Of a stretch of DNA of 64,000 nt, positions 2-61,037 are shown piece by piece. This DNA is from an uncultured Candidatus Binatia bacterium (GTDB lineage Bacteria > Desulfobacterota > Binatia > UBA9968 > JAJDTQ01). A program made the position numbers and the translations under genes. The DNA lies in contig OZ241976.1 of assembly GCA_965204205.1 (NCBI GenBank), positions 2,343,333 to 2,407,332 of the forward strand. The letters are read 5' to 3'. The notes under the pieces were generated by a model. That model saw only the letters and a program-made list of their open reading frames with translations. It was not told where the DNA came from and made no database searches. Numbering within the stretch: the stretch's first letter is position 1; each line of letters opens with the position of its first letter.

Positions 2-1420
2 GTGGGGTTCCTGCCGGGCATCGGCGGTCCCACCACCCTGGCCATCATGCTTCCGTTCGTGATGACCATGCAGGACCCCTATCCGGTCATCGCGCTGCTG
101 GTGGGCATGGACGCGGTGGGCAACACCGCCAGCGCCTTCCCCTCCATCCTCATCTCCATACCCGGGAGCTCGGGCTCCCAGGCCACGATCCTGGATGGCT
201 ATCCCCTGGCGAAGCAGGGGCAGGCCGCCCGGGCGTTGAGCGCGTCCTTCGCGGCGTCGCTGCTGGGCGGGTTCGTGGGCGCCTTCGTCCTGGTGGCCTC
301 CCTGCCGGTGTTGCGGCCCCTGGTGCTCACCTTCGGCTCGCCGGAATTCTTCGTGCTCACGCTGTGGGGCCTCACCATGGTGGCGGTGCTGAGCGGCAAC
401 GCGCCCGTCAAGGGCATCATCGCCGGCATCATCGGAGTCCTGGTGGCCACCGTGGGCATGGACGTGAAGTCCGGAATACCCCGGTTCGACTTCGACTACG
501 ACTATCTCTGGGACGGCATCAGCCTCATCATCGTCGCCCTGGGGCTGTTCGGCATCCCCGAGATCATCGACCTGGCGAGCCGCAAGACCAGCATCGCCGA
601 GCACGAGGAACTGGGCAGCGGTTTCCTGGAGGGCATCAAGGACGTGTTCCGGCACTGGTGGCTGATGGTGCGCTCCTCCGCCATCGGCGCGTGGGTCGGT
701 TTCCTGCCGGGGCTCGGCAGCTCCGTCGCCGACTGGTTCGCCTATGCCCACGCGGTGCAGACCGAGAGGAACACCGACGGCTTCGGCAAGGGCGACATCC
801 GCGGGGTCATCGCGCCCGAGGCCTCCAACAACGCCAAGGAAGGCGGCGGGTACATCCCCACCCTGGCCTTCGGCATCCCCGGCAGCACCTCCACCGCGTT
901 GATCCTCACCGCCTTCGTGGCCGTGGGCATCAAGCCCGGCCCCGACATGCTGACCTCGCAGCTCGACCTCACCTTCGCGGTGATCTGGACCCTGGTCATC
1001 GGCAACGTCATCGCGGTGGCGATGTGCTGCGCCCTCGCCAGGCCCATGGCGCGGGCATGCTTCATGCCGTTCCACAGCATCGTGCCGCTGGTGGCGGTGT
1101 TCGTCTTCATCGGCGCCTTCGCCGCCAACTTCAGCGTCAACGACCTGCGGGCGCTGCTGGTGTTCTCGCTGCTGGGCTTCATGATGCGGCGGCACGGGTG
1201 GCCGCGGCCGCCGCTGCTTTTGGGGGTGGTGCTGGGCACCAAGATGGAGACCTACCTATGGCTCTCCTACACCCGGTACGGACTTGAATGGCTGCTGCGC
1301 CCGGCCGTCATCGTGCTGCTGATACTGGTGGCGGCCTCGCTCTGCTACCCGATGCTGAAGGCGCGCCGTGAGCGCCGGCTGGCCGCCGCCGAGGCCGGCG
1401 GGGAACCGAGCGGGACATGA
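2..1420 (+). CDS. tctA: Tripartite tricarboxylate transporter large permease TctA (5' partial, runs off window start)
   Basis: 472-aa polytopic membrane ORF with repeated G-rich permease segments typical of the TctA family. It is in frame from base 2 with no upstream start inside the window. Confidence 0.8.
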   Translation: MGFLPGIGGPTTLAIMLPFVMTMQDPYPVIALLVGMDAVGNTASAFPSILISIPGSSGSQATILDGYPLAKQGQAARALSASFAASLLGGFVGAFVLVASLPVLRPLVLTFGSPEFFVLTLWGLTMVAVLSGNAPVKGIIAGIIGVLVATVGMDVKSGIPRFDFDYDYLWDGISLIIVALGLFGIPEIIDLASRKTSIAEHEELGSGFLEGIKDVFRHWWLMVRSSAIGAWVGFLPGLGSSVADWFAYAHAVQTERNTDGFGKGDIRGVIAPEASNNAKEGGGYIPTLAFGIPGSTSTALILTAFVAVGIKPGPDMLTSQLDLTFAVIWTLVIGNVIAVAMCCALARPMARACFMPFHSIVPLVAVFVFIGAFAANFSVNDLRALLVFSLLGFMMRRHGWPRPPLLLGVVLGTKMETYLWLSYTRYGLEWLLRPAVIVLLILVAASLCYPMLKARRERRLAAAEAGGEPSGT

Positions 1421-1976: not shown

Positions 1977-2136
1977 GTGTCCTGTCCGGTCAATTAGCAC
2001 AATAATCTGCGGGTCTTTTTCGCCGTCGGCGGCGTTGCTCTTCCTCGCGTGGTGCCCGCCACAGCTCGTCATCGCGCCTTGCCGACAACGAAAAATCCTC
2101 CGCATATTATCATGCCAATTTAACCGGACAGGACAC
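1977..2136. repeat. 160-bp MITE-like element with 14-bp perfect terminal inverted repeats (GTGTCCTGTCCGGT ... ACCGGACAGGACAC), abutting IS5 copy A
   Basis: TIRs read directly at 1977-1990 and 2123-2136. The internal 2030-2136 segment recurs at 40025-40155. Confidence 0.4.
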
Positions 2137-3437
2137 TAGCAGGCCGTGGAAAAACCCACGGATTTGAGTGTTGGTGACTGATGCAAAGGGAATCGGACCC
2201 TCGACGGGCTGGGATAGAGGTCATTCGCACGCCTTTTCATGCCAACGACCGTGGCGCAGACGCACGCCTCCACAGGAAGTGTGGTCACGTGCCCACTCCC
2301 AAGGTGCGCAGCCGCACCAGGTTGTAGGCCGCGAAGGTCAGGGTGAACTGGAAGTCCACCTTCGGAAGCCCCCGATGCTTGAGCTTGCGCAACCCGCCGA
2401 CGGTCTTGGCCCATCCGAAGGCTTCCTCGATCCGCTTGCGCACTCGCTGGCTCTGAGTGTAGCCAGCGTGGCGGGTGGTGCGGCCGTCAATGGCCGAACG
2501 CCGATTGGTGTCGTTCTGCGCCACATGAGGACTCGCGTTCGCCCAGCGCAACCCCTCGACAAAGTCACGGGTATCGTACCCCTTGTCCGCACCCACGGTG
2601 AGCCGGCCCTTGCCGGGTCGCCCCTCGATCATGGACAGCGCCGACTCCCGCTCAGCCCGGCCGCTGGCCTGGGTGGTACGCGTGTCGACGATCAGTCCAT
2701 GGCGGTTGTCCATCAAGGCATGCCCCAGGTAGCACAACTTCGCTTCCTGCCCCTTGCCCTTGCGGTACTGCAGGGCCTGCGGGTCGGTGGTGGACTCATG
2801 GGTCGCATTGCTGCGCTTCTCGCCCCGGAAGTCCTCCTCGGCATTGCGTCCGCCGCCGCCCCGCGGTCCCTCGCCCCCTTTGGGGCGAAACGACTTCATC
2901 GACGCCCAGGCCTCCAGCAGCGTCCCATCGACACTGAAGTGCTCATCCGACAAAAGCCGGGCGTCACGCGCCTGCACCAGGATCTTCGCAAAGAACTCCC
3001 GGGCGATGTCCGAGCCGATCAACCGCTCCCGGTTCTTCGTGAACGTCGAGTGGTCCCACATCGCCTCGTCCATCGACAGCCCCACAAACCACCGGAACAA
3101 GAGGTTGTAGTCCAGTTGCTCCACCAACAGCCGCTCGCTGCGGATCGAGTAAAGCACCTGCAACAGCAACGCCCGCAGCAACTGTTCCGGCGCGATCGAA
3201 GGCCGCCCCGTGTGCGAGTACATCGCCTCCAACTCCCCGGACAGATCTTCCAGCGCCCGGTTCACCATCTCCCGGATCGGTCGCAACGGATGGTCCTTGG
3301 GAACACGGGCTTCCGGCGATACATAGCTGAACATGCCTTCTTGACGCGGATCAGTGCCTCTCATCGACTCCTCCGTCCCAGTACGAACATACAAAATATG
3401 TACCCGCGTCAGACGGACTTTTTCAACAACCTGCTAG
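2137..3437 (-). mobile_element. IS5-family insertion sequence, copy A (about 1.29 kb body flanked by CTAG at both ends)
   Basis: Near-identical to the element at 56236..57537. Imperfect terminal IRs CAGG(C/T)(C/T)GT(G/T)GAAAA. CTAG is present at 2137-2140 and 3434-3437, consistent with IS5-group YTAR targets and 4-bp duplication. Confidence 0.85.
2285..3394 (-). CDS. IS5-family DDE transposase (DUF772 N-terminal region plus DDE_Tnp_1)
   Basis: 369-aa ORF. The N-terminus MFSYVSPEARVPKDHPLRPIR is characteristic of IS5-group transposases. A second copy in the window differs at about nine residues. Confidence 0.9.
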   Translation of the reverse strand: MYVRTGTEESMRGTDPRQEGMFSYVSPEARVPKDHPLRPIREMVNRALEDLSGELEAMYSHTGRPSIAPEQLLRALLLQVLYSIRSERLLVEQLDYNLLFRWFVGLSMDEAMWDHSTFTKNRERLIGSDIAREFFAKILVQARDARLLSDEHFSVDGTLLEAWASMKSFRPKGGEGPRGGGGRNAEEDFRGEKRSNATHESTTDPQALQYRKGKGQEAKLCYLGHALMDNRHGLIVDTRTTQASGRAERESALSMIEGRPGKGRLTVGADKGYDTRDFVEGLRWANASPHVAQNDTNRRSAIDGRTTRHAGYTQSQRVRKRIEEAFGWAKTVGGLRKLKHRGLPKVDFQFTLTFAAYNLVRLRTLGVGT

Positions 3438-4231
3438 CGGAACGTGATCACCGAGCTCACGCCGCGGCCGGCGTCGGTGTGGATCACCTCGCCGGTCATG
3501 ATGCGGGACTGGGACGACGCCAGCAGCAAGTAGGCGGCGGCGTGGTCCTCCGGGACCACGGCGACTTCGAGGAGGTTGTTGCCGAGGCCCGCGGGCGGTC
3601 GGGGAGCGCCGAAGACGTCGTCTCCGCCGGCTCCGGGGGCCAGGGACGGCGCCGCGCGCAGGCCGGTGGCGGTGCCGGACGGCGCCACCCCGTTCACCCG
3701 GACCGTGGGGGCCAGCTCGTTGGCCAACTGCCGCACCAAGCCCAGGGCGGCGTGCTTGGAGGCGACGTACAGGGTCCCGCCGCTCACGTAGTAGGACGAC
3801 GTGGACAGCGTGAACACCATGTTGCCGCGGGTCTTGATCAGCTCGGGGATGGCGGCCTTGGCGCCCAGGAAATAGCCCTTGACATTGACTCCGAGGACCT
3901 CGTCGTAGCCCTTCTCCAGCTCCTCGTCCGATAGCTCCGCCAGGGGCCGTCTGGCGTCGTGGATGCCGGCGTTGCCTACGAACACCGTCAGCTTTCCGAA
4001 CTCCGACACCGCCGCGGCCACCGCCCGGCGGTTGTCCTCCAGGCTGCGCACGTCGCCGGACACCACCGCCACTCCCTCGCCCACCTCGTCCTTCAGCGCG
4101 GCCAGTCGTTCCGCGGAACGGTCGAAGGCCACCACCTTGGCGCCCTCCTCGACGAAACGGACCACCACGGCCTTGCCGATCCCCGAACCGGCCCCGGTCA
4201 CGACCGCCACCTCGTTCTCGAGCCATTGCAT
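3434..4231 (-). CDS. SDR-family short-chain dehydrogenase/reductase
   Basis: TGAGSGIG Rossmann motif, NAG and YxxxK-like catalytic region. Start chosen at MQWLENE (ATG 4231) because an AAGGAG RBS lies 9 nt upstream. The stop TAG lies within the CTAG at the IS5 copy A junction. Confidence 0.85.
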   Translation of the reverse strand: MQWLENEVAVVTGAGSGIGKAVVVRFVEEGAKVVAFDRSAERLAALKDEVGEGVAVVSGDVRSLEDNRRAVAAAVSEFGKLTVFVGNAGIHDARRPLAELSDEELEKGYDEVLGVNVKGYFLGAKAAIPELIKTRGNMVFTLSTSSYYVSGGTLYVASKHAALGLVRQLANELAPTVRVNGVAPSGTATGLRAAPSLAPGAGGDDVFGAPRPPAGLGNNLLEVAVVPEDHAAAYLLLASSQSRIMTGEVIHTDAGRGVSSVITFR

Positions 4232-4438
4232 GGACGTTACCTCCTTGAGTGTGGGCTGTACCATACCAATCGCCGGGCCGGTTCGGAACCGTCCGGCGTC
4301 ACTCCGACCGGCGCCCTTCGGCTTCGCGCCGGCGGCGCGAAGCCGAAGGGCGCCATCCTGCTCGGCAGCAATGGATCAGCGCTTCCTTGACACCGCCACG
4401 CGCCCGGGGATAGAGTCGCCTGAGCGGACGGTGCGTCC

Positions 4439-5477
4439 CATGACGGTACGATTTCCCACAACCGGGGCCATCGCGGGCGACCTTTACGGCATGGTGTTGC
4501 GTGAGCTGACTCTGTGCAAGGCGACGTCCGACGAGACCATCGTTGTCTTCACCGACACCCGCACCAACGCCAACTACGCCGCCGCCTTCCTGGCCGCCGC
4601 CAAGGAAGTGGCCGCCAGCGCGTTCGAGATCAAGATCCCGCTGCTGCCCGGCACCGCCGGGGGCGACACCGACGTGACGCCGGTGGTGGAGATCCTGAAG
4701 AGCGCTCACCTGGTGGTGGACCTCACCACCGGTGGCGTCCTCTACCTCTACAGCAAGAGACTTGCGGACGTGCTGTCCGGCGGCACCCGGGTGCTGCAGG
4801 TGCGCGGCACCGAGGACCAGCTCCGGCGCTGCTTTCCCGACGAAGCGGTGCGGCGGCGGACCCTGAACGGCGCCCGGAAACTGGAGGACGCCGGCGAGAT
4901 ACGGGTCACCACCGGCACCGGCACGGACCTCTCCATGCGCAAGGACGGCCGGCGCGGCGTGACGCAGTACGGCATCAGCGACGTGGCCGGCCGCTGGGAC
5001 AGCTGGCCCTCGGGGTTCTTGTACTGCGCGCCGCTGGAGGACAGCGCCAACGGCACGCTGATGCTCGACCCCGGGGACCTGCTGGTGATGCTGGGCCGAT
5101 ACGTGCAGCAGCCGGTGCGCATCGAGGTCAAGGACGGCCGCATCACGGCCGTCGAAGGGGGCGTGGACGCCATCCTGCTCAAGGAGCACCTCGAGCAGTC
5201 GGGTGACCCCCAGGCCTTCATCATCTCGCACATCGGCTGGGGCACGGACGCGCGGGCGCGCTGGGTGGAGGTGGCGCAGCGCGGCACCGAGGAGGGCGCG
5301 CGCGACGCCCGCTCCACCTACGGCAACGTGCAGATCGCCTTCGGCGCCAACTACGCGCTGGGCGGAAAGAACACCACGCTGGCCCACGAGGACCTGATCC
5401 TGCGCCGGGCCGCTTTCCATCTCGACGGAGAGATGATCGTCGACGACGGCCAAATCATCCCCGAAGAGCTGAGGTGA
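4439..5477 (+). CDS. 2,5-dihydroxypyridine 5,6-dioxygenase-like protein (NicX / M29 aminopeptidase-like fold)
   Basis: C-terminal motifs GRWDSWPSGF, ISHIGWG and YGN..GG match my recollection of Pseudomonas NicX. Start ambiguous (ATG 4439 chosen; 4371 or 4491 possible). The long upstream ORF extension is antisense to the SDR gene. Confidence 0.6.
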
Positions 5478-5520: not shown

Positions 5521-6375
5521 ATGAGCCTGACCGTCAAGCCCGTCTGCCCCGCCGTCGGCGCCGAGATCGAGGGCCTGGATCTGCGCGAGCCGCTGACCGA
5601 GGAAGCCCGTGAACAGATCCTGGACGCCTTTCACGAGTACGTGCTGCTGCTGTTCCGGGGACAGGAACTGACCGAGGATCAGCAGACGGCTTTCGCCACC
5701 ACCTTCGGCGAGTTGGGCAAGCGCACCGTGGGGGCCCGTTTCGTCAAGTCCCCCAAGGACACCTACGCCAACCCGGTGATGATGGTCACCAACCGCAGCG
5801 ACGACGGACCCACGGGCAACACCGCCTCCTTCGGCGACGGCGAGATGTGGTTCCACCACGACACCTGCTTCTACCCGGTGCCCAACATCGTCACCATGCT
5901 GTACGGCATGGAGGTCACCACCAGCGGCGGACTGACGCGTATCGCGAACATGTACCTGGCGTACGACAGTATCCCCCGGGAACTGCGCGACCGGCTGGAG
6001 GGACGAACCGTCCTGCAGGTTTACGACTACAACCGCTACCGCATCGACCCCAACGTGGACATGGCCGGCGCCCGAAGCCACGTGCAGCCCATCTTCATCA
6101 CCCACCCGGTGACCGGCAAGAAAGCGCTCTACGTGAACCGGACCATGACCGCGCACATCGAAGGGATGGACCGCGCCGAGAGCGACGCCATCCTGGACCA
6201 ACTGTTCGAAATCGCCGAGGACGACCGCATCGTTTACGACCACCAGTGGCGGGTGGGCGACCTGCTCATGTGGGACAACCGCTGCTCCACCCACGCGCGC
6301 ACCGACTTCCCCGCCGAGGAGGCGCGAATCCTGCGGCGCTGCACGGTGGCCGGGAAGGAGCCGGTCCACGCGTAG
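5521..6375 (+). CDS. TauD/TfdA-family Fe(II)/2-oxoglutarate-dependent dioxygenase, paralog 1
   Basis: 284 aa. HHD...H metal-binding pattern and an R near the C-terminus. AGGAGG RBS upstream. 55-60% identical to the next gene by eye. Confidence 0.85.
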   Translation: MSLTVKPVCPAVGAEIEGLDLREPLTEEAREQILDAFHEYVLLLFRGQELTEDQQTAFATTFGELGKRTVGARFVKSPKDTYANPVMMVTNRSDDGPTGNTASFGDGEMWFHHDTCFYPVPNIVTMLYGMEVTTSGGLTRIANMYLAYDSIPRELRDRLEGRTVLQVYDYNRYRIDPNVDMAGARSHVQPIFITHPVTGKKALYVNRTMTAHIEGMDRAESDAILDQLFEIAEDDRIVYDHQWRVGDLLMWDNRCSTHARTDFPAEEARILRRCTVAGKEPVHA

Positions 6376-6405: not shown

Positions 6406-7263
6406 ATGAGCTTGAACACAAGACCGCTGTCACCGGCCCTGGGAGTCGAGATCCTCGGACTGGACGTGAGCGAGCCGCTGGATGAAAAGGTCCGGGACGA
6501 GATCCTTGCGGAGTTCTACCAACACGTCGCGCTGCTGTTCCGCGGCCAGGACCTCACGGTGGAGCAGCAGAACCGCTTCACCACCACCTTCGGCGACATC
6601 GGCAAGCGCACCATCGGCCCCCGTCTTCGGAAATCCGCCGACGACATCTACACCACGCCGGTGATGGTGGTGAGCAACATCAAGGAGAACGGCAAGCCGC
6701 TCGAGGGGTCCTCGGCCAACGGCGACCGGGAGATGGGCTTCCACCAGGACACCGCCTTTCACGAGATCCCCGACCACGTCACCATCCTGTACGGCATCGA
6801 GGTGTCGTCCCACGGCGGCCATACCATGGTGACCAACCAGTACGCCGCCTACGACAGCGTCCCGGCCGACCTCAAGACGAAGCTGGAAGGATGCAAGGTG
6901 CTGCAGGTCTACGACTACCAGCGGCACACCGTGGGTCCCGACCTCGATCTGAGCGGCGCCCGCTATTTCATGCAGCCCATCTTCATCACCCACCCGGTCA
7001 CGGGCCGCAAGGCGCTGTACGTGAACCGCATGATGTCCGTCCACATCGAGGGCATGAACCGGGCCGAGAGCGACGCCATCCTGGGCGACCTGTTCGACAT
7101 CACCGAGGACCCGCGCTTCAGGTACGAGCACGTGTGGGAGGTGGGAGACCTGCTGATGTGGGACAACTTCTGCTCGATCCACGCCCGCACGTTCTACCCG
7201 GACGAGGAGCGCCGGCTGCTGCGGCGCACCACCGTGGCCGGCAAGGGCCAGTTGCACGCGTAA
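6406..7263 (+). CDS. TauD/TfdA-family Fe(II)/2-oxoglutarate-dependent dioxygenase, paralog 2
   Basis: 285 aa tandem paralog of 5521..6375. CAGGAG RBS upstream. Confidence 0.85.
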   Translation: MSLNTRPLSPALGVEILGLDVSEPLDEKVRDEILAEFYQHVALLFRGQDLTVEQQNRFTTTFGDIGKRTIGPRLRKSADDIYTTPVMVVSNIKENGKPLEGSSANGDREMGFHQDTAFHEIPDHVTILYGIEVSSHGGHTMVTNQYAAYDSVPADLKTKLEGCKVLQVYDYQRHTVGPDLDLSGARYFMQPIFITHPVTGRKALYVNRMMSVHIEGMNRAESDAILGDLFDITEDPRFRYEHVWEVGDLLMWDNFCSIHARTFYPDEERRLLRRTTVAGKGQLHA

Positions 7264-7897: not shown

Positions 7898-7920
7898 AGG
7901 GGCGACCGCGGGTCGCCCCT
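7898..7920. repeat. REP-like palindrome AGGGGCGACCGCGGGTCGCCCCT
   Basis: Perfect 9-bp stem with 5-nt loop. Member of a dispersed family with at least eight copies in the window. Confidence 0.5.
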
Positions 7921-40000: not shown

Positions 40001-40067
40001 TTTGCAACTCCTTTCCCTCGCCTGCGAGGAGCGAACACTCGCTCTTCGTCGCGTGGTACCCGCCACA

Positions 40068-40090
40068 TGGGGCGACCGCCGGTCGCCCTT
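40068..40090. repeat. REP-like palindrome TGGGGCGACCGCCGGTCGCCCTT
   Basis: Same family, 3' of the M20 hydrolase stop. Confidence 0.5.
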
Positions 40091-40120
40091 ACAAAGTCAT
40101 CGCGCCTTGCCGACGACGAA

Positions 40121-40148
40121 AATTCCTGCGCAATTTATCGCAGGAATT
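40121..40148. promoter_or_regulatory. Perfect 10-bp-stem palindrome AATTCCTGCG-caatttat-CGCAGGAATT between the M20 hydrolase stop and the OMP gene start
   Basis: Read directly. AT-rich loop in an otherwise GC-rich intergenic region. Candidate operator or terminator. Confidence 0.3.
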
Positions 40149-40162
40149 TACGGGACACCACA

Positions 40163-41497
40163 CTAGCGACTCTCGGGGTCGAACACCTCCGTCGCGTCGA
40201 GCTTGCGCTGATACTCCAGGTACTCCTGCTTCGTCATGCGCGGCTTGTCGTTCTCGAGGATCCGCCGCGCCGCCCCGGCGTCGTCGTGCAGGAGGTCGAT
40301 GGCGGTCATGGCCAGGAGCTTGGCCGACTTGACGTACACCGAATCCTGGTCCACCAGAAGGTAGCCGTTGGTATGGCCGCCGCCCTGGGCGCCGGCGACG
40401 TAGGGCTGCACCGCCGGCATGATATGGGCCAGGTCGCCGAAGTCGGTGCTGCTGGTGCGGTGCTCGGTGCCGAGCGCGAACTGGCCGGCGCCGAACAACT
40501 CCTCCGCGTTCCCGCCCCACAGACGGGCCATGGCCTCGTTGTTGGTCTGAGGCAGGTAACCCGGTACCGTGGTGATCTCCACGCTTGCGCCGACCGCCAT
40601 GGCGGCGCCACGGAGCGCGTTGTCTACCTTGCGGTTGGCGTCGAGGATGCCCTCCAGGGTCTTGCCGCGAATGAAGGTCTCGACGGTCACCTCCGCCGGC
40701 ACCACGCTTACGGCGTCGCCGCCCCGGGTGATGATCGGATGGATGCGAATGGTGTCGTCATCGTAGAAGGTCTCGCGCTGGTAGGCGATGGCGGTCATGG
40801 CCAGGTTGGCGGCGTTGAGGGCGTTGATGCCCTTTTGCGGGCTCCCGCCGGCGTGCGCCGCCTTGCCGATGAAGCGTATCTTCTTGATGACGGCGCCGTT
40901 GGACGACCGTGCAACGTGGGAGGCGAGGGTGTCGGTCTTGGTATGGAACATCATCGCCAGGTCGACGTCGTCGAAGTGGCCGAGCCGGATGAGCTCCGCC
41001 TTGCCCGAAAGAAACTCGAGCTCGTCCCGCGCCTTGCGCTGCATGCGCCCGTCGACGTCGATCATCTCTTCGGCCGGAACGGCGAAGAACACCAGCGAAC
41101 CGCTGAGTTCCGGCAACACCGCGGCGGACAGCAGGCCCATGGCCGCGCCCACCATCCCCGCCACCTGCGCGTTGTGGCCGCAGGCATGGGCCGCGCCGGT
41201 TCGGGGATCGGCATGGGGGTGGTCCGGCACCCGGAGCGCGTCCAGCTCACCGAGTATGGCCAGTGTCGGACCCGGGCCGCCGCAGTCGCGGCGGCCCTTG
41301 ACGCCGGTGATGGCCAGACCCCGCCGCGGCTCGACCCCGAGCCCCTGGAGCCGCGCGGCTACCAGGTCCGCGGTGTTGTTCTCGTTGAAGCCCGTCTCCG
41401 GGTTGCGCAGGATCGTCTCGCCGACGTCCACGATCTCCCCCCTGCGGGCGTCGATGACCCGGCACGCCTCGGCCTTGAGATCCTCCCTGGAGGTCAT
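40163..41497 (-). CDS. M20-family metallohydrolase (amidohydrolase/hippurate hydrolase-like)
   Basis: 444 aa. Metal-binding H/D/E pattern of the M20 peptidase family (HACGH; H.K.D). Start MTSREDL, cat confirmed at 41495-41497. Confidence 0.8.
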   Translation of the reverse strand: MTSREDLKAEACRVIDARRGEIVDVGETILRNPETGFNENNTADLVAARLQGLGVEPRRGLAITGVKGRRDCGGPGPTLAILGELDALRVPDHPHADPRTGAAHACGHNAQVAGMVGAAMGLLSAAVLPELSGSLVFFAVPAEEMIDVDGRMQRKARDELEFLSGKAELIRLGHFDDVDLAMMFHTKTDTLASHVARSSNGAVIKKIRFIGKAAHAGGSPQKGINALNAANLAMTAIAYQRETFYDDDTIRIHPIITRGGDAVSVVPAEVTVETFIRGKTLEGILDANRKVDNALRGAAMAVGASVEITTVPGYLPQTNNEAMARLWGGNAEELFGAGQFALGTEHRTSSTDFGDLAHIMPAVQPYVAGAQGGGHTNGYLLVDQDSVYVKSAKLLAMTAIDLLHDDAGAARRILENDKPRMTKQEYLEYQRKLDATEVFDPESR

Positions 41498-41979
41498 GGA
41501 TCGTGCCGGAGCGCGTCTTCCAGCAGCGCCAGGGCGGCCTCGGTGAAAGCCCACATGTTGGCTTCCCGGTCCGGGCTGCCGGTTTCGATGGTGATGGCTT
41601 TCTCCACCGGTCCCACGATGGCCATGCAACTGTGGCCGGCCGCGTCACCGTAGCGATTCCCGGCCGGGCCGGTGGCGCCGCTTTCGGAAAGGCCCCAGGT
41701 GGTGTTCAACCGTCCCTGGATCAATCGCGCCATGTTCAGCGCATAGGACTCGGTGCTGCCCCGGACCGTCACCTCGCTCTCCGGCATCATCAGGAGACCG
41801 GCCCGGGCGTGCCGGGTGTAGATGACCCCGCCGCCGACGAAATAGGCCGAAGCCCCGGGCAGCGACAGCAGCGCGGCGGAGATCAACCCGCCGGTGGAGG
41901 ATTCAGCCACCGCCACGGTCTGGTTCTTCTCCTTGAGCAACTCGCCCACGGAACGTCCGAGGGTGATCAGATCCGGCAT
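41494..41979 (-). CDS. CinA-family protein (PncC-like nicotinamide-nucleotide amidohydrolase domain)
   Basis: 161 aa, motif VAESSTGGLISAAL. AAGGGGAGG RBS. 4-bp overlap with the downstream M20 gene. Confidence 0.8.
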   Translation of the reverse strand: MPDLITLGRSVGELLKEKNQTVAVAESSTGGLISAALLSLPGASAYFVGGGVIYTRHARAGLLMMPESEVTVRGSTESYALNMARLIQGRLNTTWGLSESGATGPAGNRYGDAAGHSCMAIVGPVEKAITIETGSPDREANMWAFTEAALALLEDALRHDP

Positions 41980-47845: not shown

Positions 47846-47857
47846 TGGAAAGGATGC

Positions 47858-47881
47858 AGGGGCGACCGGCCGGCCGCCCCT
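47858..47881. repeat. Degenerate REP-like palindrome AGGGGCGACCGGCCGGCCGCCCCT
   Basis: Same family with one stem mismatch. Between the amidohydrolase C stop and the rSAM start. Confidence 0.4.
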
Positions 47882-47898
47882 GCGATTTCAACCGCCGC

Positions 47899-55076: not shown

Positions 55077-56174
55077 ATGGCGGAAGCCGCAACTCTCGAA
55101 GAAATCAAGGACCGCATCCGCAAGCGCGTGGGCAGGCGGAGCCCGTTCCACCTGATGGATGCGGCGGAAGCCGAAGGCGTGCTGGCCGAGCTCAGCAGCC
55201 TCGAAGCCGACGCCTGGGCGGAAGCCTGGAGCAGACCCGGCGCACGCTGGCAGAAGACCGCGAAGGAAGCAGAGGAAAAGGGAAACGCCGATGAGGCCAG
55301 GGACGCCTACTTCCAGGCCGCCGCCTTCTACGGCACCGGCCGCCATCCCTTCCCCAGCTCTCCCGGCAAGCAGGAAGCCTACCGCAAGACCATCGAGAAC
55401 TACCTCGCCGCGGCGCGCTACTTCGATCCTCCGCTGGAGCGCATCGCCCTCCCCTTGCGGGACAAGGACGTGGTGGGCTACCTGCGCCTGCCCGCCAAAC
55501 GGCCGGCACCGCTGATCATGCACTGGGGAGGCATCGACAACTGGAAGGAGGATCGCCACAACTTCGTGGAGTCCATGCTCGCCGAGGACTGGGGCTGCTT
55601 CATCATGGACAGCCCCGGCACCGGAGAGTCGCCGGTGCCGGCGTCGGATACCGCCCACGAGGTCTACAGCACCGCGCTGCACTACCTTGCCACCCGGCCC
55701 GAGGTAGACCCGGCCCGCATCGCCGCCCTGGGCGCCAGCTTCGGCGGCTACTGGTCCACCAAGCTGGCCCACGTGGAGCCCGACCGGCTGTGCGCCGCGG
55801 TCAACTGGGGCGGCGGCATCCATGGCTTCTTCCAGCCCGAGTGGCAGCAGCGGTCCCGCAACGCCTCGTCCTACCTCTTCGACCTCATCGAGGCCCGCGC
55901 CAACCTCTTCGGCAAGCGGACCTTCGAGGAGCTGTGCGAGGTCATGCCCATCCTCTCCCTCAAGGACCAGGGTCTGCTCGACAAGCCCTGCGCCCCCATG
56001 CTGCTGGTCAACGGCAAGGACGACCTCCAGGTCCCCATCGACGACTTCTTCATGCTGCTGGAGTGCGGCAGCCCCAAGGCCATGCGCCTCTTCCCCGGCG
56101 GCCACATGGGCGAGTCCCCGGACGTGTTCCCGACGATACTGCGGTGGCTGCATAGAGAGCTGGACGGGGAGTGA
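55077..56174 (+). CDS. Alpha/beta hydrolase (FrsA/DUF1100-like esterase)
   Basis: GASFGG nucleophile elbow, a C-terminal D and H (GGHMGE). GGAGGA RBS. A decayed duplicate of its last roughly 190 bp lies at 60833..61025. Confidence 0.75.
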   Translation: MAEAATLEEIKDRIRKRVGRRSPFHLMDAAEAEGVLAELSSLEADAWAEAWSRPGARWQKTAKEAEEKGNADEARDAYFQAAAFYGTGRHPFPSSPGKQEAYRKTIENYLAAARYFDPPLERIALPLRDKDVVGYLRLPAKRPAPLIMHWGGIDNWKEDRHNFVESMLAEDWGCFIMDSPGTGESPVPASDTAHEVYSTALHYLATRPEVDPARIAALGASFGGYWSTKLAHVEPDRLCAAVNWGGGIHGFFQPEWQQRSRNASSYLFDLIEARANLFGKRTFEELCEVMPILSLKDQGLLDKPCAPMLLVNGKDDLQVPIDDFFMLLECGSPKAMRLFPGGHMGESPDVFPTILRWLHRELDGE

Positions 56175-56235
56175 ACGGACACCGTGGACCCTGGCAAGGC
56201 AAGCATGAACGCGCACGTTGCTGGAAAGGCGAAGA

Positions 56236-57537
56236 CTAGCAGGTTGTTGAAAAGGTCCGTCTGACGCGGGTACATATTTTGTATGTTCGTACTGGGACGG
56301 AGGAGTCGATGAGAGGCACTGATCCGCGTCAAGAAGGCATGTTCAGCTATGTGTCGCCGGAAGCCCGTGTTCCCAAGGACCATCCGTTGCGACCGATCCG
56401 GGAGATGGTGAACCGGGCGCTGGAAGATCTGTCCGGGGAGTTGGAGGCGATGTACTCGCACACGGGGCGGCCTTCGATCGCGCCGGAACAGTTGCTGCGG
56501 GCGTTGCTGTTGCAGGTGCTTTACTCGATCCGCAGCGAACGGCTGTTGGTGGAGCAACTGGACTACAATCTTTTGTTCCGTTGGTTTGTGGGACTGTCGA
56601 TGGACGAGGCGATGTGGGACCACTCGACGTTCACGAAGAACCGGGAGCGGTTGATCGGCTCGGACATCGCCCGGGAGTTCTTTGCGAAGATCCTGGTGCA
56701 GGCGCGTGACGCCCGGCTCTTGTCGGATGAGCACTTCAGCGTGGATGGCACGCTGCTGGAGGCGTGGGCGTCGATGAAGTCGTTTCGCCCCAAGGGGGGC
56801 GCGGGACCGCAGGGCGGCGGCGGGCGCAACGCCGAGGAGGACTTTCGGGGGGAGAAGCGCAGCAATGCGACCCATGAGTCTACCACCGATCCGCAGGCAC
56901 GGCAGTACCGCAAGGGCAAGGGGCAGGAGGCGAAGTTGTGCTACCTGGGGCATGCCTTGATGGACAACCGCCATGGACTGATCGTCGATACGCGCACCAC
57001 CCAGGCCAGCGGACGGGCTGAGCGGGAGTCGGCGCTGGCCATGATCGAGGCGCGACCCGGCAAGGGCCGGCTCACCGTGGGTGCGGACAAGGGGTACGAT
57101 ACCCGTGACTTTGTCGAGGGGTTGCGCTGGGCGAACGCGAGTCCTCATGTGGCACAGAACGACACCAACCGGCGTTCGGCCATTGATGGCCGCACCACCC
57201 GCCACCCTGGCTACGCTCACAGCCAACGGGTGCGCAAGCGGATCGAGGAAGCCTTCGGATGGGCCAAGACCGTCGGCGGGTTGCGCAAGCTCAAGCATCG
57301 GGGGCTTCCGAAGGTGGGCTTCCAGTTCACCCTGACCTTCGCGGCCTACAATCTGGTGCGGCTGCGCACCTTGGGAGTGGGCACGTGACCACACTTCCTG
57401 TGGAGGCGTGCGTCTGCGCCACGGTCGTTGGCATGAAAAGGCGTGCGAATGACCTCTATCCCAGCCCGTCGAGGGTCCGATTCCCTTTGCATCAGTCACC
57501 AACACTCAAATCCGTGGGTTTTTCCACGGCCTGCTAG
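56236..57537 (+). mobile_element. IS5-family insertion sequence, copy B (inverted relative to copy A)
   Basis: Same termini as copy A, with CTAG at 56236-56239 and 57534-57537. One mismatch to copy A over the 80-bp left end compared. Confidence 0.85.
56279..57388 (+). CDS. IS5-family DDE transposase
   Basis: 369 aa. About nine residue differences from the copy at 2285..3394. Confidence 0.9.
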   Translation: MYVRTGTEESMRGTDPRQEGMFSYVSPEARVPKDHPLRPIREMVNRALEDLSGELEAMYSHTGRPSIAPEQLLRALLLQVLYSIRSERLLVEQLDYNLLFRWFVGLSMDEAMWDHSTFTKNRERLIGSDIAREFFAKILVQARDARLLSDEHFSVDGTLLEAWASMKSFRPKGGAGPQGGGGRNAEEDFRGEKRSNATHESTTDPQARQYRKGKGQEAKLCYLGHALMDNRHGLIVDTRTTQASGRAERESALAMIEARPGKGRLTVGADKGYDTRDFVEGLRWANASPHVAQNDTNRRSAIDGRTTRHPGYAHSQRVRKRIEEAFGWAKTVGGLRKLKHRGLPKVGFQFTLTFAAYNLVRLRTLGVGT

Positions 57538-60832: not shown

Positions 60833-61025
60833 TCGCTTCGGAGATGTCAATGCCCATCCTCTCCCTCAAGTACCAGGGCCTGCTCGACAAACCCTGCGCC
60901 CCCATACTGCTGGAGTGCGGCCGCCCCAAGGCCATGGCCTCTTCCCCGGCGGCCACATGGGCGAGTCGCCGGGCGTGTTTCCGACGATACTGTGGCGGCT
61001 GCACCGGGAGCTTGACGGGGAGTGA
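60833..61025 (+). pseudogene. Decayed 3' fragment of an alpha/beta-hydrolase gene (paralogous remnant of 55077..56174)
   Basis: Roughly 85-90% identity by eye to 55951..56174. A 54-bp deletion is bounded by ATGCTGCTGG direct repeats in the intact gene, plus a 1-bp deletion (frameshift). No start codon or RBS. Confidence 0.7.
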
Positions 61026-61037
61026 AAGAAAGACACC

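Follow-up and report, generated by a model that had tools for sequence, protein, structure and literature searches.

Does the end of a small palindromic repeat attract insertion sequences (IS) of the IS5 family, or have two unrelated transposons met at a word that both of them use? The question is raised by a 64,000-nucleotide stretch of an uncultured Candidatus Binatia bacterium (contig OZ241976.1, positions 2,343,333 to 2,407,332 of the forward strand; hereafter the window), in which an IS5-family element directly adjoins the last base of a 160-bp repeat at positions 1977-2136. The original prediction, made from the letters alone, took this repeat for something resembling a miniature inverted-repeat transposable element (MITE) and its end for an IS5 insertion hotspot. 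We consider it very likely both that the repeat is an IS630-derived MITE of a Binatia family and that the junction arose because two unrelated transposons use one rare word, CTAG, with no recognition of the MITE by the IS5 element.

Anatomy of the repeat and its junction

The full-length copy (copy 1) is a non-coding imperfect palindrome, 160 bp long between flanking TA dinucleotides and 166 bp (1974-2139) with the tetranucleotides on either side included; of these, the left has decayed to CAAG and the right is an intact CTAG. As had been predicted, it is bounded by perfect 14-bp terminal inverted repeats, which self-comparison places at 1977-1990 (GTGTCCTGTCCGGT) and 2123-2136 (ACCGGACAGGACAC, the perfect complement of the left repeat), and the complementarity is still 94% over 18 nt (1976-1993 / 2120-2137). 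When compared with its own reverse complement, the copy is 70% identical over 168 nt (E = 5e-16). Folding, which had been proposed as a check, gave a hairpin far more stable than those of shuffled sequences: -49.3 kcal/mol for the plus strand as DNA (z = -8.6) and -105.4 kcal/mol for the minus strand as RNA (z = -11.6), with none of 200 shuffles equally stable. The strand of copy 1 was set to minus, since the element is read by the abutting upstream SDR gene and forms the more stable RNA hairpin in that direction. Besides the palindrome, the terminal repeats and the fold, its extent follows from family alignments: it aligns end to end with 27 other distinct family copies, and with 44 in an alignment of 45 copies.

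The IS5-family element beside it (copy A, 2140-3433, minus strand) is 1294 bp long and has inverted repeats CAGGCCGTGGAAAAA / CAGGTTGTTGAAAAA. Its transposase open reading frame (ORF; 2285-3364, minus strand) scores 297 bits against NCBIfam NF033581 and contains the Pfam domains DUF772 and DDE_Tnp_1, which places it in the IS5 family. The junction is a CTAG at 2136-2139, made up of the last MITE base, the presumed TA target duplication and a flanking G; it is at the same time the left copy of the 4-bp IS5 target duplication. The right copy lies at 3434-3437. These two duplications bear out the claim that copy A sits exactly at the end of the repeat. The minus-strand TAG of the right CTAG is the stop codon of the SDR gene (3434-4264, minus strand), and hence the MITE abutted this stop codon directly before the IS5 arrived. 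Insertion of the IS5 into the CTAG at the right edge of the MITE would have parted the MITE from the SDR gene while rebuilding the SDR stop codon, and it was probably neutral for that reason. Exact-match protein look-ups of the IS5 transposase and the SDR protein returned no record.

We also considered that the MITE might derive from the adjacent IS5. This was ruled out, as the IS5 ends (CAGGCCGTGGAAAAACC and CAGGTTGTTGAAAAAGTCC) differ from the MITE ends (GTGTCCTGTCCGGTCAATT).

A family of related repeats in Binatia

A 21-nt core (GCGCCTTGCCGACNACGAAAA), conserved between copy 1 and a second, truncated copy in the window, was used to scan a set with one genome for each species. It was present in at least 111 stretches; save about seven chance matches, these belong to about 17 metagenome-assembled genomes (MAGs) labelled Candidatus Binatia or carrying older lineage names, and among the matches listed, single chromosomes hold many. 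The core had no match in viral contigs, and a plasmid collection had no match to the MITE and only distant ones to the IS5 (about 71-72% identity). We fetched 111 Binatia loci around the matches (8-kb loci, about 0.8 Mb in total, numbered from L001), and BLAST with 44 representatives returned 134 copies or fragments, 132 of them in these loci and two in the window. Copy 1 therefore belongs to a repeat family, as had been supposed, and the suggested search in relatives has turned up many further members. From the window and the loci, the density is estimated at roughly one copy per 30 kb, and the family at 100-200 copies per genome in uncultured Binatia. Among the genomes with matches listed, the Binatia MAG JAJEAI01 is closest to the window, with 82-87% nucleotide identity in orthologous genes.

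At a length of 165 bp, the canonical copy reads CTAG-TGTC(C/G)TGTC…GACA(G/C)GACA-CTAG. Terminal inverted repeats are present across the family; of 91 left ends, 46 have an intact CTAG, as do 65 of 91 right ends. Each member consists of about 12 conserved terminal nucleotides (TA followed by GTGTCSTGTC…), a subfamily arm of about 22 nt and a core of about 100 nt that is self-complementary; over its full length the element is predicted to form a hairpin of about 70 bp. In pairwise comparisons of 28 distinct full-length copies, the central ~100 nt are 92% identical and the terminal 12 nt 89%, but arm positions 13-34 only 52%. Within each copy the arms covary, with compensatory double changes in 27 of 60 predicted pairs.

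A 33-aa ORF recurs on the minus strand, yet the family does not preserve it: of 75 copies, 36 have it ending at the terminal TAG, and variants that carry a repetitive extragenic palindromic (REP) unit interrupt it. The idea of a small protein was dropped for this reason; the last codons are a relic of the C-terminus of an IS630 transposase (…INQTPH followed by the stop codon). Rfam gave no matches at gathering thresholds across the whole window, and permissive searches around both copies returned noise. Given that no Rfam family corresponds to the repeat and that our literature search found no paper on MITEs in Binatia, we regard the family as a new member of a known element type.

Two unusual arrangements were seen among the loci. 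At L087 (2005-2051), a 46-bp mini-derivative consists of only the two terminal repeats of one subfamily (TAGTGTTGTGTCTC…GAGACACAACACTAG), the core being wholly deleted. At L024 (2440-2830), two MITEs of different subfamilies stand in tandem, and both are absent at the orthologous site in L026 (4821-4960). An 11-bp direct repeat (CAGGCTCCTAG) brackets this array in place of the normal right terminus, which suggests a more complex rearrangement or a gene-conversion event.

Origin of the MITE ends

When the loci were searched for the terminal motif outside known MITE copies, L076 was found to hold a 1160-bp IS630-family element (3578-4737) with the same termini as the MITEs, TAGTGTCCTGTCCGATTAATTAG… and …CGAATTAACCAGACACCACACTAG. 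Its ORF (3618-4736) encodes 372 aa, uses the terminal TAG as its stop codon, scores 260 bits against NF033545 (cut-off 100) and contains the Pfam domains DDE_3, HTH_32, HTH_23, HTH_28 and HTH_29. The right end of this element matches one MITE subfamily over 32 nt at 94%. Its left end (GTGTCCTGTCCGATTAATTAG), which is matched by the left terminal repeat of copy 1, resembles the copy 1 subfamily over 22 nt at 95%. The rest of the L076 element has no match to the MITE. L085 contains another IS630 homologue (49.5% aa identity), one end of which, GTGTCCTGTCCCGCAAATAAC, matches a further MITE subfamily.

The target of IS630 is the TA within 5'-CTAG-3' (Tenzen & Ohtsubo 1991, as quoted in PMC2170065), and TA duplication is general among IS630-family elements (PMC2170065). 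The MITE is assigned to the IS630/Tc1-mariner group on the strength of its matching ends, the family of the transposase and the CTAG target.

A degraded IS630-like shell with family-type ends was also seen in L102 (140-1508; OY761465.1). It retains only the N-terminal helix-turn-helix part of the transposase (1053-1496) and contains an unrelated 162-aa ORF (516-1004, minus strand).

Insertion at CTAG

A clean pair of filled and empty sites demonstrates insertion into a single CTAG. The filled site in L077 (OX638375.1) reads …CCCCCATGGG-CTAG-element-CTAG-TCAATTC…, and the orthologous empty site in L110 (OY761465.1) reads …CCCCCATGGGCTAGTCAATTC… with one CTAG. Comparisons of L002 with L086, L009 with L017, L024 with L026, L027 with L060, and the window with L007 and with L040 were too diverged or complex to decide. 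At about 21960 the window is without an element (GACTGAGTCGCC, no CTAG), at a place where L040 carries a copy. In five strict cases elements stand head to tail with one CTAG in common; hence, the family also inserts at CTAGs of its own making. CTAG is the target site of the MITE itself, and TA rather than CTAG appears to be the duplicated unit.

An IS630-type DDE transposase acting in trans would bind both identical ends, excise the element and insert it at the TA inside 5'-CTAG-3'. Duplication of this TA would leave every insertion bracketed by two CTAGs. We infer from the sequences that the family may be mobilised in trans by such a transposase.

Two transposons at one word

With the target of the MITE established, the junction with copy A can be considered. 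The part of the original prediction that concerned the target word has held up: the MITE end does supply a CTAG of the YTAR type that the IS5 uses. The family ends in CTAG, both IS5 copies in the window carry CTAG duplications, and in all 11 metagenomic IS5 relatives with both ends resolved the duplication was CTAG, CTAA, TTAG or TTAA, which confirms the YTAR target of this IS5 clade. These relatives come from a set of 80 loci (59-85% aa identity) gathered from metagenomes by a protein-based search; an exact 25-mer of the IS5 inverted repeat had found no match among metagenome contigs.

A hotspot demands more than a common word. If the IS5 transposase recognised the palindromic repeat or its end, the family would be a preferred landing pad, in the manner of IS1397 and ISKpn1. 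The one exact junction of copy A with the terminal CTAG of the MITE and the CTAG ends of other family members are what this explanation can draw on. The remaining IS5 elements speak against it. Copy B (56240-57533, plus strand) shares 97% identity with copy A, to which it is inverted. A CTAG stands on either side of it (56236-56239 and 57534-57537), but no MITE-like sequence is adjacent. When the IS5 transposase was searched with tblastn against the 111 Binatia loci, which hold roughly 130 copies or fragments of the MITE, no homologue turned up. The MITE is absent from all 80 metagenomic IS5 loci and adjoins none of these relatives, the targets of which are plain YTAR. No second IS5-MITE junction was thus found in any of the three sets. 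Tabulated against the terminal CTAG, the other IS5 copies show no association with the element, which is the very observation that had been named as telling against a hotspot. An IS5-like end beside the copy in L036 was dropped as a candidate, as L036 is among the loci in which tblastn found no transposase homologue.

The rarity of CTAG is what makes a chance encounter plausible. The window contains 19 CTAGs, whereas 202 are expected from base composition and 77 from a Markov model, so that the word is about tenfold under-represented relative to base composition. Four of the 19 are IS5 duplications, and two of the 17 pre-insertion sites (12%) are MITE ends. In the Binatia loci, 168 of 348 CTAGs lie at element ends, and CTAGs outside MITEs occur about once per 4.4 kb, as estimated from the window and the loci. 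We estimate that MITE ends make up 15-23% of all CTAG sites genome-wide, a figure that comes from the window and from 8-kb loci picked for containing an element and is not a whole-genome count. By chance, about one in five insertions of a CTAG-seeking IS5 would therefore fall at a MITE end, and with a chance of 12% in the window or 15-23% by the wider estimate a single junction is not significant. Taken together with copy B, the 111 loci and the 80 relatives, this leaves a landing pad very improbable. The most likely explanation of the junction, held with the same high confidence as the IS630 origin of the MITE, is a rare target word used by both transposons, with no sign of preferential recognition.

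Several points weigh against this explanation and the IS630 origin, in addition to the makeup of the 15-23% figure. There is no IS630 copy within the window, and only one filled/empty pair is clean. As CTAG is palindromic, a TA duplication, a CTAG duplication and a CTAG lying within the inverted repeat would look alike. One copy, in L041 (OY761465.1), ends in CTGG…CCAG, an inverted pair and not a direct repeat, which hints that the tetranucleotide behaves as a portion of the hairpin or inverted repeat, or that the two arms have been homogenised against each other. Finally, a core of 92% pairwise identity between arms of 52% is the reverse of a typical MITE, and selfish transposition alone would leave this conserved core with variable arms unexplained.

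As an observation apart from these questions, three collinear direct repeats, 90-94% identical, occupy 55944-56175 and 60850-61026 of the window. They span the 3' ends of a pair of paralogous genes separated by about 4.9 kb, and the first of them lies immediately upstream of IS5 copy B.

A truncated copy and its nested palindromes

The second copy in the window (copy 2, 40041-40163, minus strand) is truncated: the left arm is missing, and the apex with the right arm and terminus (…ACGGGACACCACAC) is left. Compared with copy 1, it is 92.6% identical at 40041-40067 and 80.8% identical at 40096-40167. It lies between the stop codon of an M20 peptidase gene (40163-41629) and the start codon of an OMP gene, both on the minus strand. 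Its terminal CTAG at 40163-40166 is intact, and the minus-strand TAG of this word is the M20 stop codon. The original prediction had described a partial copy with a nested REP palindrome and an intact CACTAG without an IS. All of this is real, except that the CACTAG (40161-40166) lies beyond 40155, where the copy had been taken to end. Copy 2 had also been regarded as a portion of the same element; with its different arm (ACGGGACACCACAC) it represents a sister subfamily and not a fragment of copy 1. Half copies resembling it occur in L003, L007, L089 and L095.

The palindrome nested in the apex of copy 2 (40068-40095, TGGGGCGACCGCCGGTCGCCCTTACAAA) is REP-like, and a REP unit occupies the same apex position in many family members elsewhere. 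Together with other units in the window it fits the REP description (…CCCTAC / GTAGGG…) and belongs to a repeat family apart from the MITE. This separate family consists of GC-rich palindromes (GGGGCGACCNNNGGTCGCCCC), often with a GTAG/CTAC head as in RAYT-associated REPs; units were seen at 7899, 22782, 23898, 23960, 32858, 40069 and 43624, and also at 1932-1965 and 47856-47889. At many Binatia loci either a unit of the window type or one of a second type (GGGCGGGTTTGAAACCCGCCC) is nested at a fixed position of the MITE apex, between GCCAC and GTCATCGCG. A third small palindromic insert, ACGTCACCCCGGGCTTGACCCGGGGT, follows GCTGCGTT at a fixed position in the left half of the MITE core; it was seen in the copies of L035, L036, L091, L093, L103 and L106, which come from different genomes. 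Since this insert recurs, MITE copies can be described as mosaics of nested mini-palindromes. Near copy 1, which stands between convergent genes, a GC-rich palindrome (1932-1959) adjoins the element from outside.

With such units inside many family members as well as elsewhere in the window, one may ask whether the 165-bp repeat is itself a REP or bacterial interspersed mosaic element (BIME), moved by a RAYT (IS200/IS605-like) transposase, or else a long bidirectional terminator palindrome and no transposon at all. The genuine GTAG-headed units are in keeping with such a reading, as is the place of copy 1 between convergent genes and next to the palindrome at 1932-1959. However, 165 bp far exceeds a REP unit, which is a palindrome of 20-40 nt with a GTAG head, and the REP units are separate inserts nested in some copies only. 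The ends match IS630-family elements, the element is bracketed by CTAG and has a clean empty site, and no U-tract follows the hairpin. We therefore regard this explanation as extremely unlikely, even more so than the landing pad, and retain the IS630-derived MITE.

Genes, transcription and RNA folding

In 30 of 91 family members a long GC3-rich ORF uses the terminal TAG of the MITE as its stop codon, at 21 right ends and 9 left ends (p = 0.04). In the window, several of the remaining CTAGs are found at stop-codon ends of listed ORFs, for example at 3434, 22750, 39233, 40163 and 48816, and it appears that CTAG survives mainly as C+TAG at gene ends. Insertion at C+TAG would be harmless because the duplication rebuilds the stop codon. 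In Binatia genomes of 66% G+C with depleted CTAG, the insertions that persist would thus be expected to sit just after genes, as they do at the SDR and M20 genes.

With genes called by a crude, flank-based GC3 method, 40 elements between co-directional genes point one way and 11 the other, and transcription enters through the right arm in 49 cases and through the left arm in 21. Both window copies are in the favoured orientation. The favoured transcribed strand, which is the minus strand of the window, gives the more stable RNA fold in 44 of 45 copies (on average -99.3 kcal/mol, compared with -87.6 kcal/mol for the other strand), and the pair table contains about 70 G·U cells as opposed to about 5 A·C cells for this strand. 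We looked for transcription signals in the two window copies. A promoter scan of copy 1 yielded a single weak promoter-like match and that of copy 2 nothing; neither copy has a terminator with a U-tract after the hairpin. The idea that the element acts as a promoter or terminator was consequently dropped.

Selection of co-transcribed hairpins has been proposed for enterobacterial repetitive intergenic consensus (ERIC), REP and Correia elements. A similar explanation, which would add to the MITE reading and not replace it, is that the mobile element is also a selected, co-transcribed RNA hairpin module serving as a 3'-UTR stabiliser, processing site or terminator. The core and arm identities of 92% and 52% are in favour of it, given that orthologous genes of these genomes are 65-88% identical, and so are the orientation bias, the excess of right ends among stop codons, the better RNA fold of the favoured strand, the G·U excess and the compensatory changes. 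Each class of evidence has a plainer counterpart, however. Complementary, covarying arms are expected anyway, since both ends must bind the same transposase and the subfamilies match different IS630 lineages. Two inherited core columns hold most of the G·U asymmetry, so that the cells are not independent events, and a C-to-T mutation bias on the coding strand combined with the orientation bias could yield the same pattern. No Rfam family matches, there is no convincing promoter or terminator, and the gene calls behind the orientation counts are crude. Judged from sequence comparison, a selected hairpin module of this kind, and an RNA-level role of the element at all, seem rather unlikely at present. 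Slightly more doubtful still is the specific proposal that the core is a strand-specific 3'-UTR RNA hairpin module, which would have been fitted repeatedly with the ends of different IS630 lineages and spread by transposition.

Implications

For the annotation of Binatia, an uncultured lineage of wide distribution, the IS630-derived MITE family and its IS630 partners are an abundant and undescribed addition. Masking or labelling the family in these genomes is worthwhile, as it accounts for an estimated fifth of CTAG sites and provides the stop codon of many genes. More generally, unrelated transposons that use one strongly depleted target word accumulate at the same places without specific recognition. 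The conserved core, the exchangeable arms and the orientation bias form a modest pointer to a role at the RNA level.

One further repeat was noted in the window, a 300-nt direct repeat at 5994-6293 and 6882-7181 with 76% identity and a spacing of 888 bp. It probably represents tandem paralogous genes.

Relation to known repeats and transposons

The Binatia element has the features by which MITEs are known: it is small (160-166 bp), keeps no ORF, has terminal inverted repeats and many copies, uses a CTAG target for which an empty site was found, and has its ends in common with an autonomous IS.

IS1397 and ISKpn1 insert specifically into REP/BIME palindromes; they recognise the repeat as such, and many of their independent insertions share one position. 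The junction in the window, for which the original prediction had drawn this analogy, is alike only in that an IS lies at a repeated palindrome. In contrast to those elements, it is a single case explained by the common CTAG word, and recurrent insertions at the same position were not found at copy B, in the 111 loci or among the 80 relatives.

Correia elements of Neisseria and the ERIC elements of enterobacteria resemble the Binatia MITE in their size of 130-165 bp, in being imperfect palindromes over their whole length, in their intergenic place near gene 3' ends and in a TA-containing target. RNase III processing, binding of integration host factor (IHF) and promoter activity are known for Correia elements. 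The orientation bias and the stable predicted RNA hairpin of the Binatia family would be consistent with co-transcription. Unlike Correia and ERIC elements, with which it has no sequence similarity, the family belongs to another host phylum and has an identified autonomous IS630 partner.

MITEPsy1 of Pseudomonas syringae is an IS5-derived MITE found at CTAG or YTAA, and has its ends in common with the IS5-family element ISPsy2 (PMC3189936). It is likewise a small MITE tied to a CTAG target. The ends of the Binatia MITE (GTGTCCTGTCC), however, are unlike those of the adjacent IS5 (CAGGCCGTGGAAAAA) and like those of IS630 elements.

The closest resemblance is to the MITEs of the IS630/Tc1-mariner group, such as the eukaryotic Stowaway elements and the IS630-related MITEs of bacteria. 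Like them, the Binatia element is short and non-coding, has terminal inverted repeats that are the ends of resident IS630 elements, lies at CTAG, where TA or CTAG is duplicated, has a clean empty counterpart, and is present in many copies. It differs from them in that the IS accounts for only about 22-32 nt of each end, the core of ~100 nt being without an IS counterpart, and in that this core is more conserved than the transposase-binding arms. Furthermore, Binatia subfamilies that carry the arms of different IS630 lineages have one common core.

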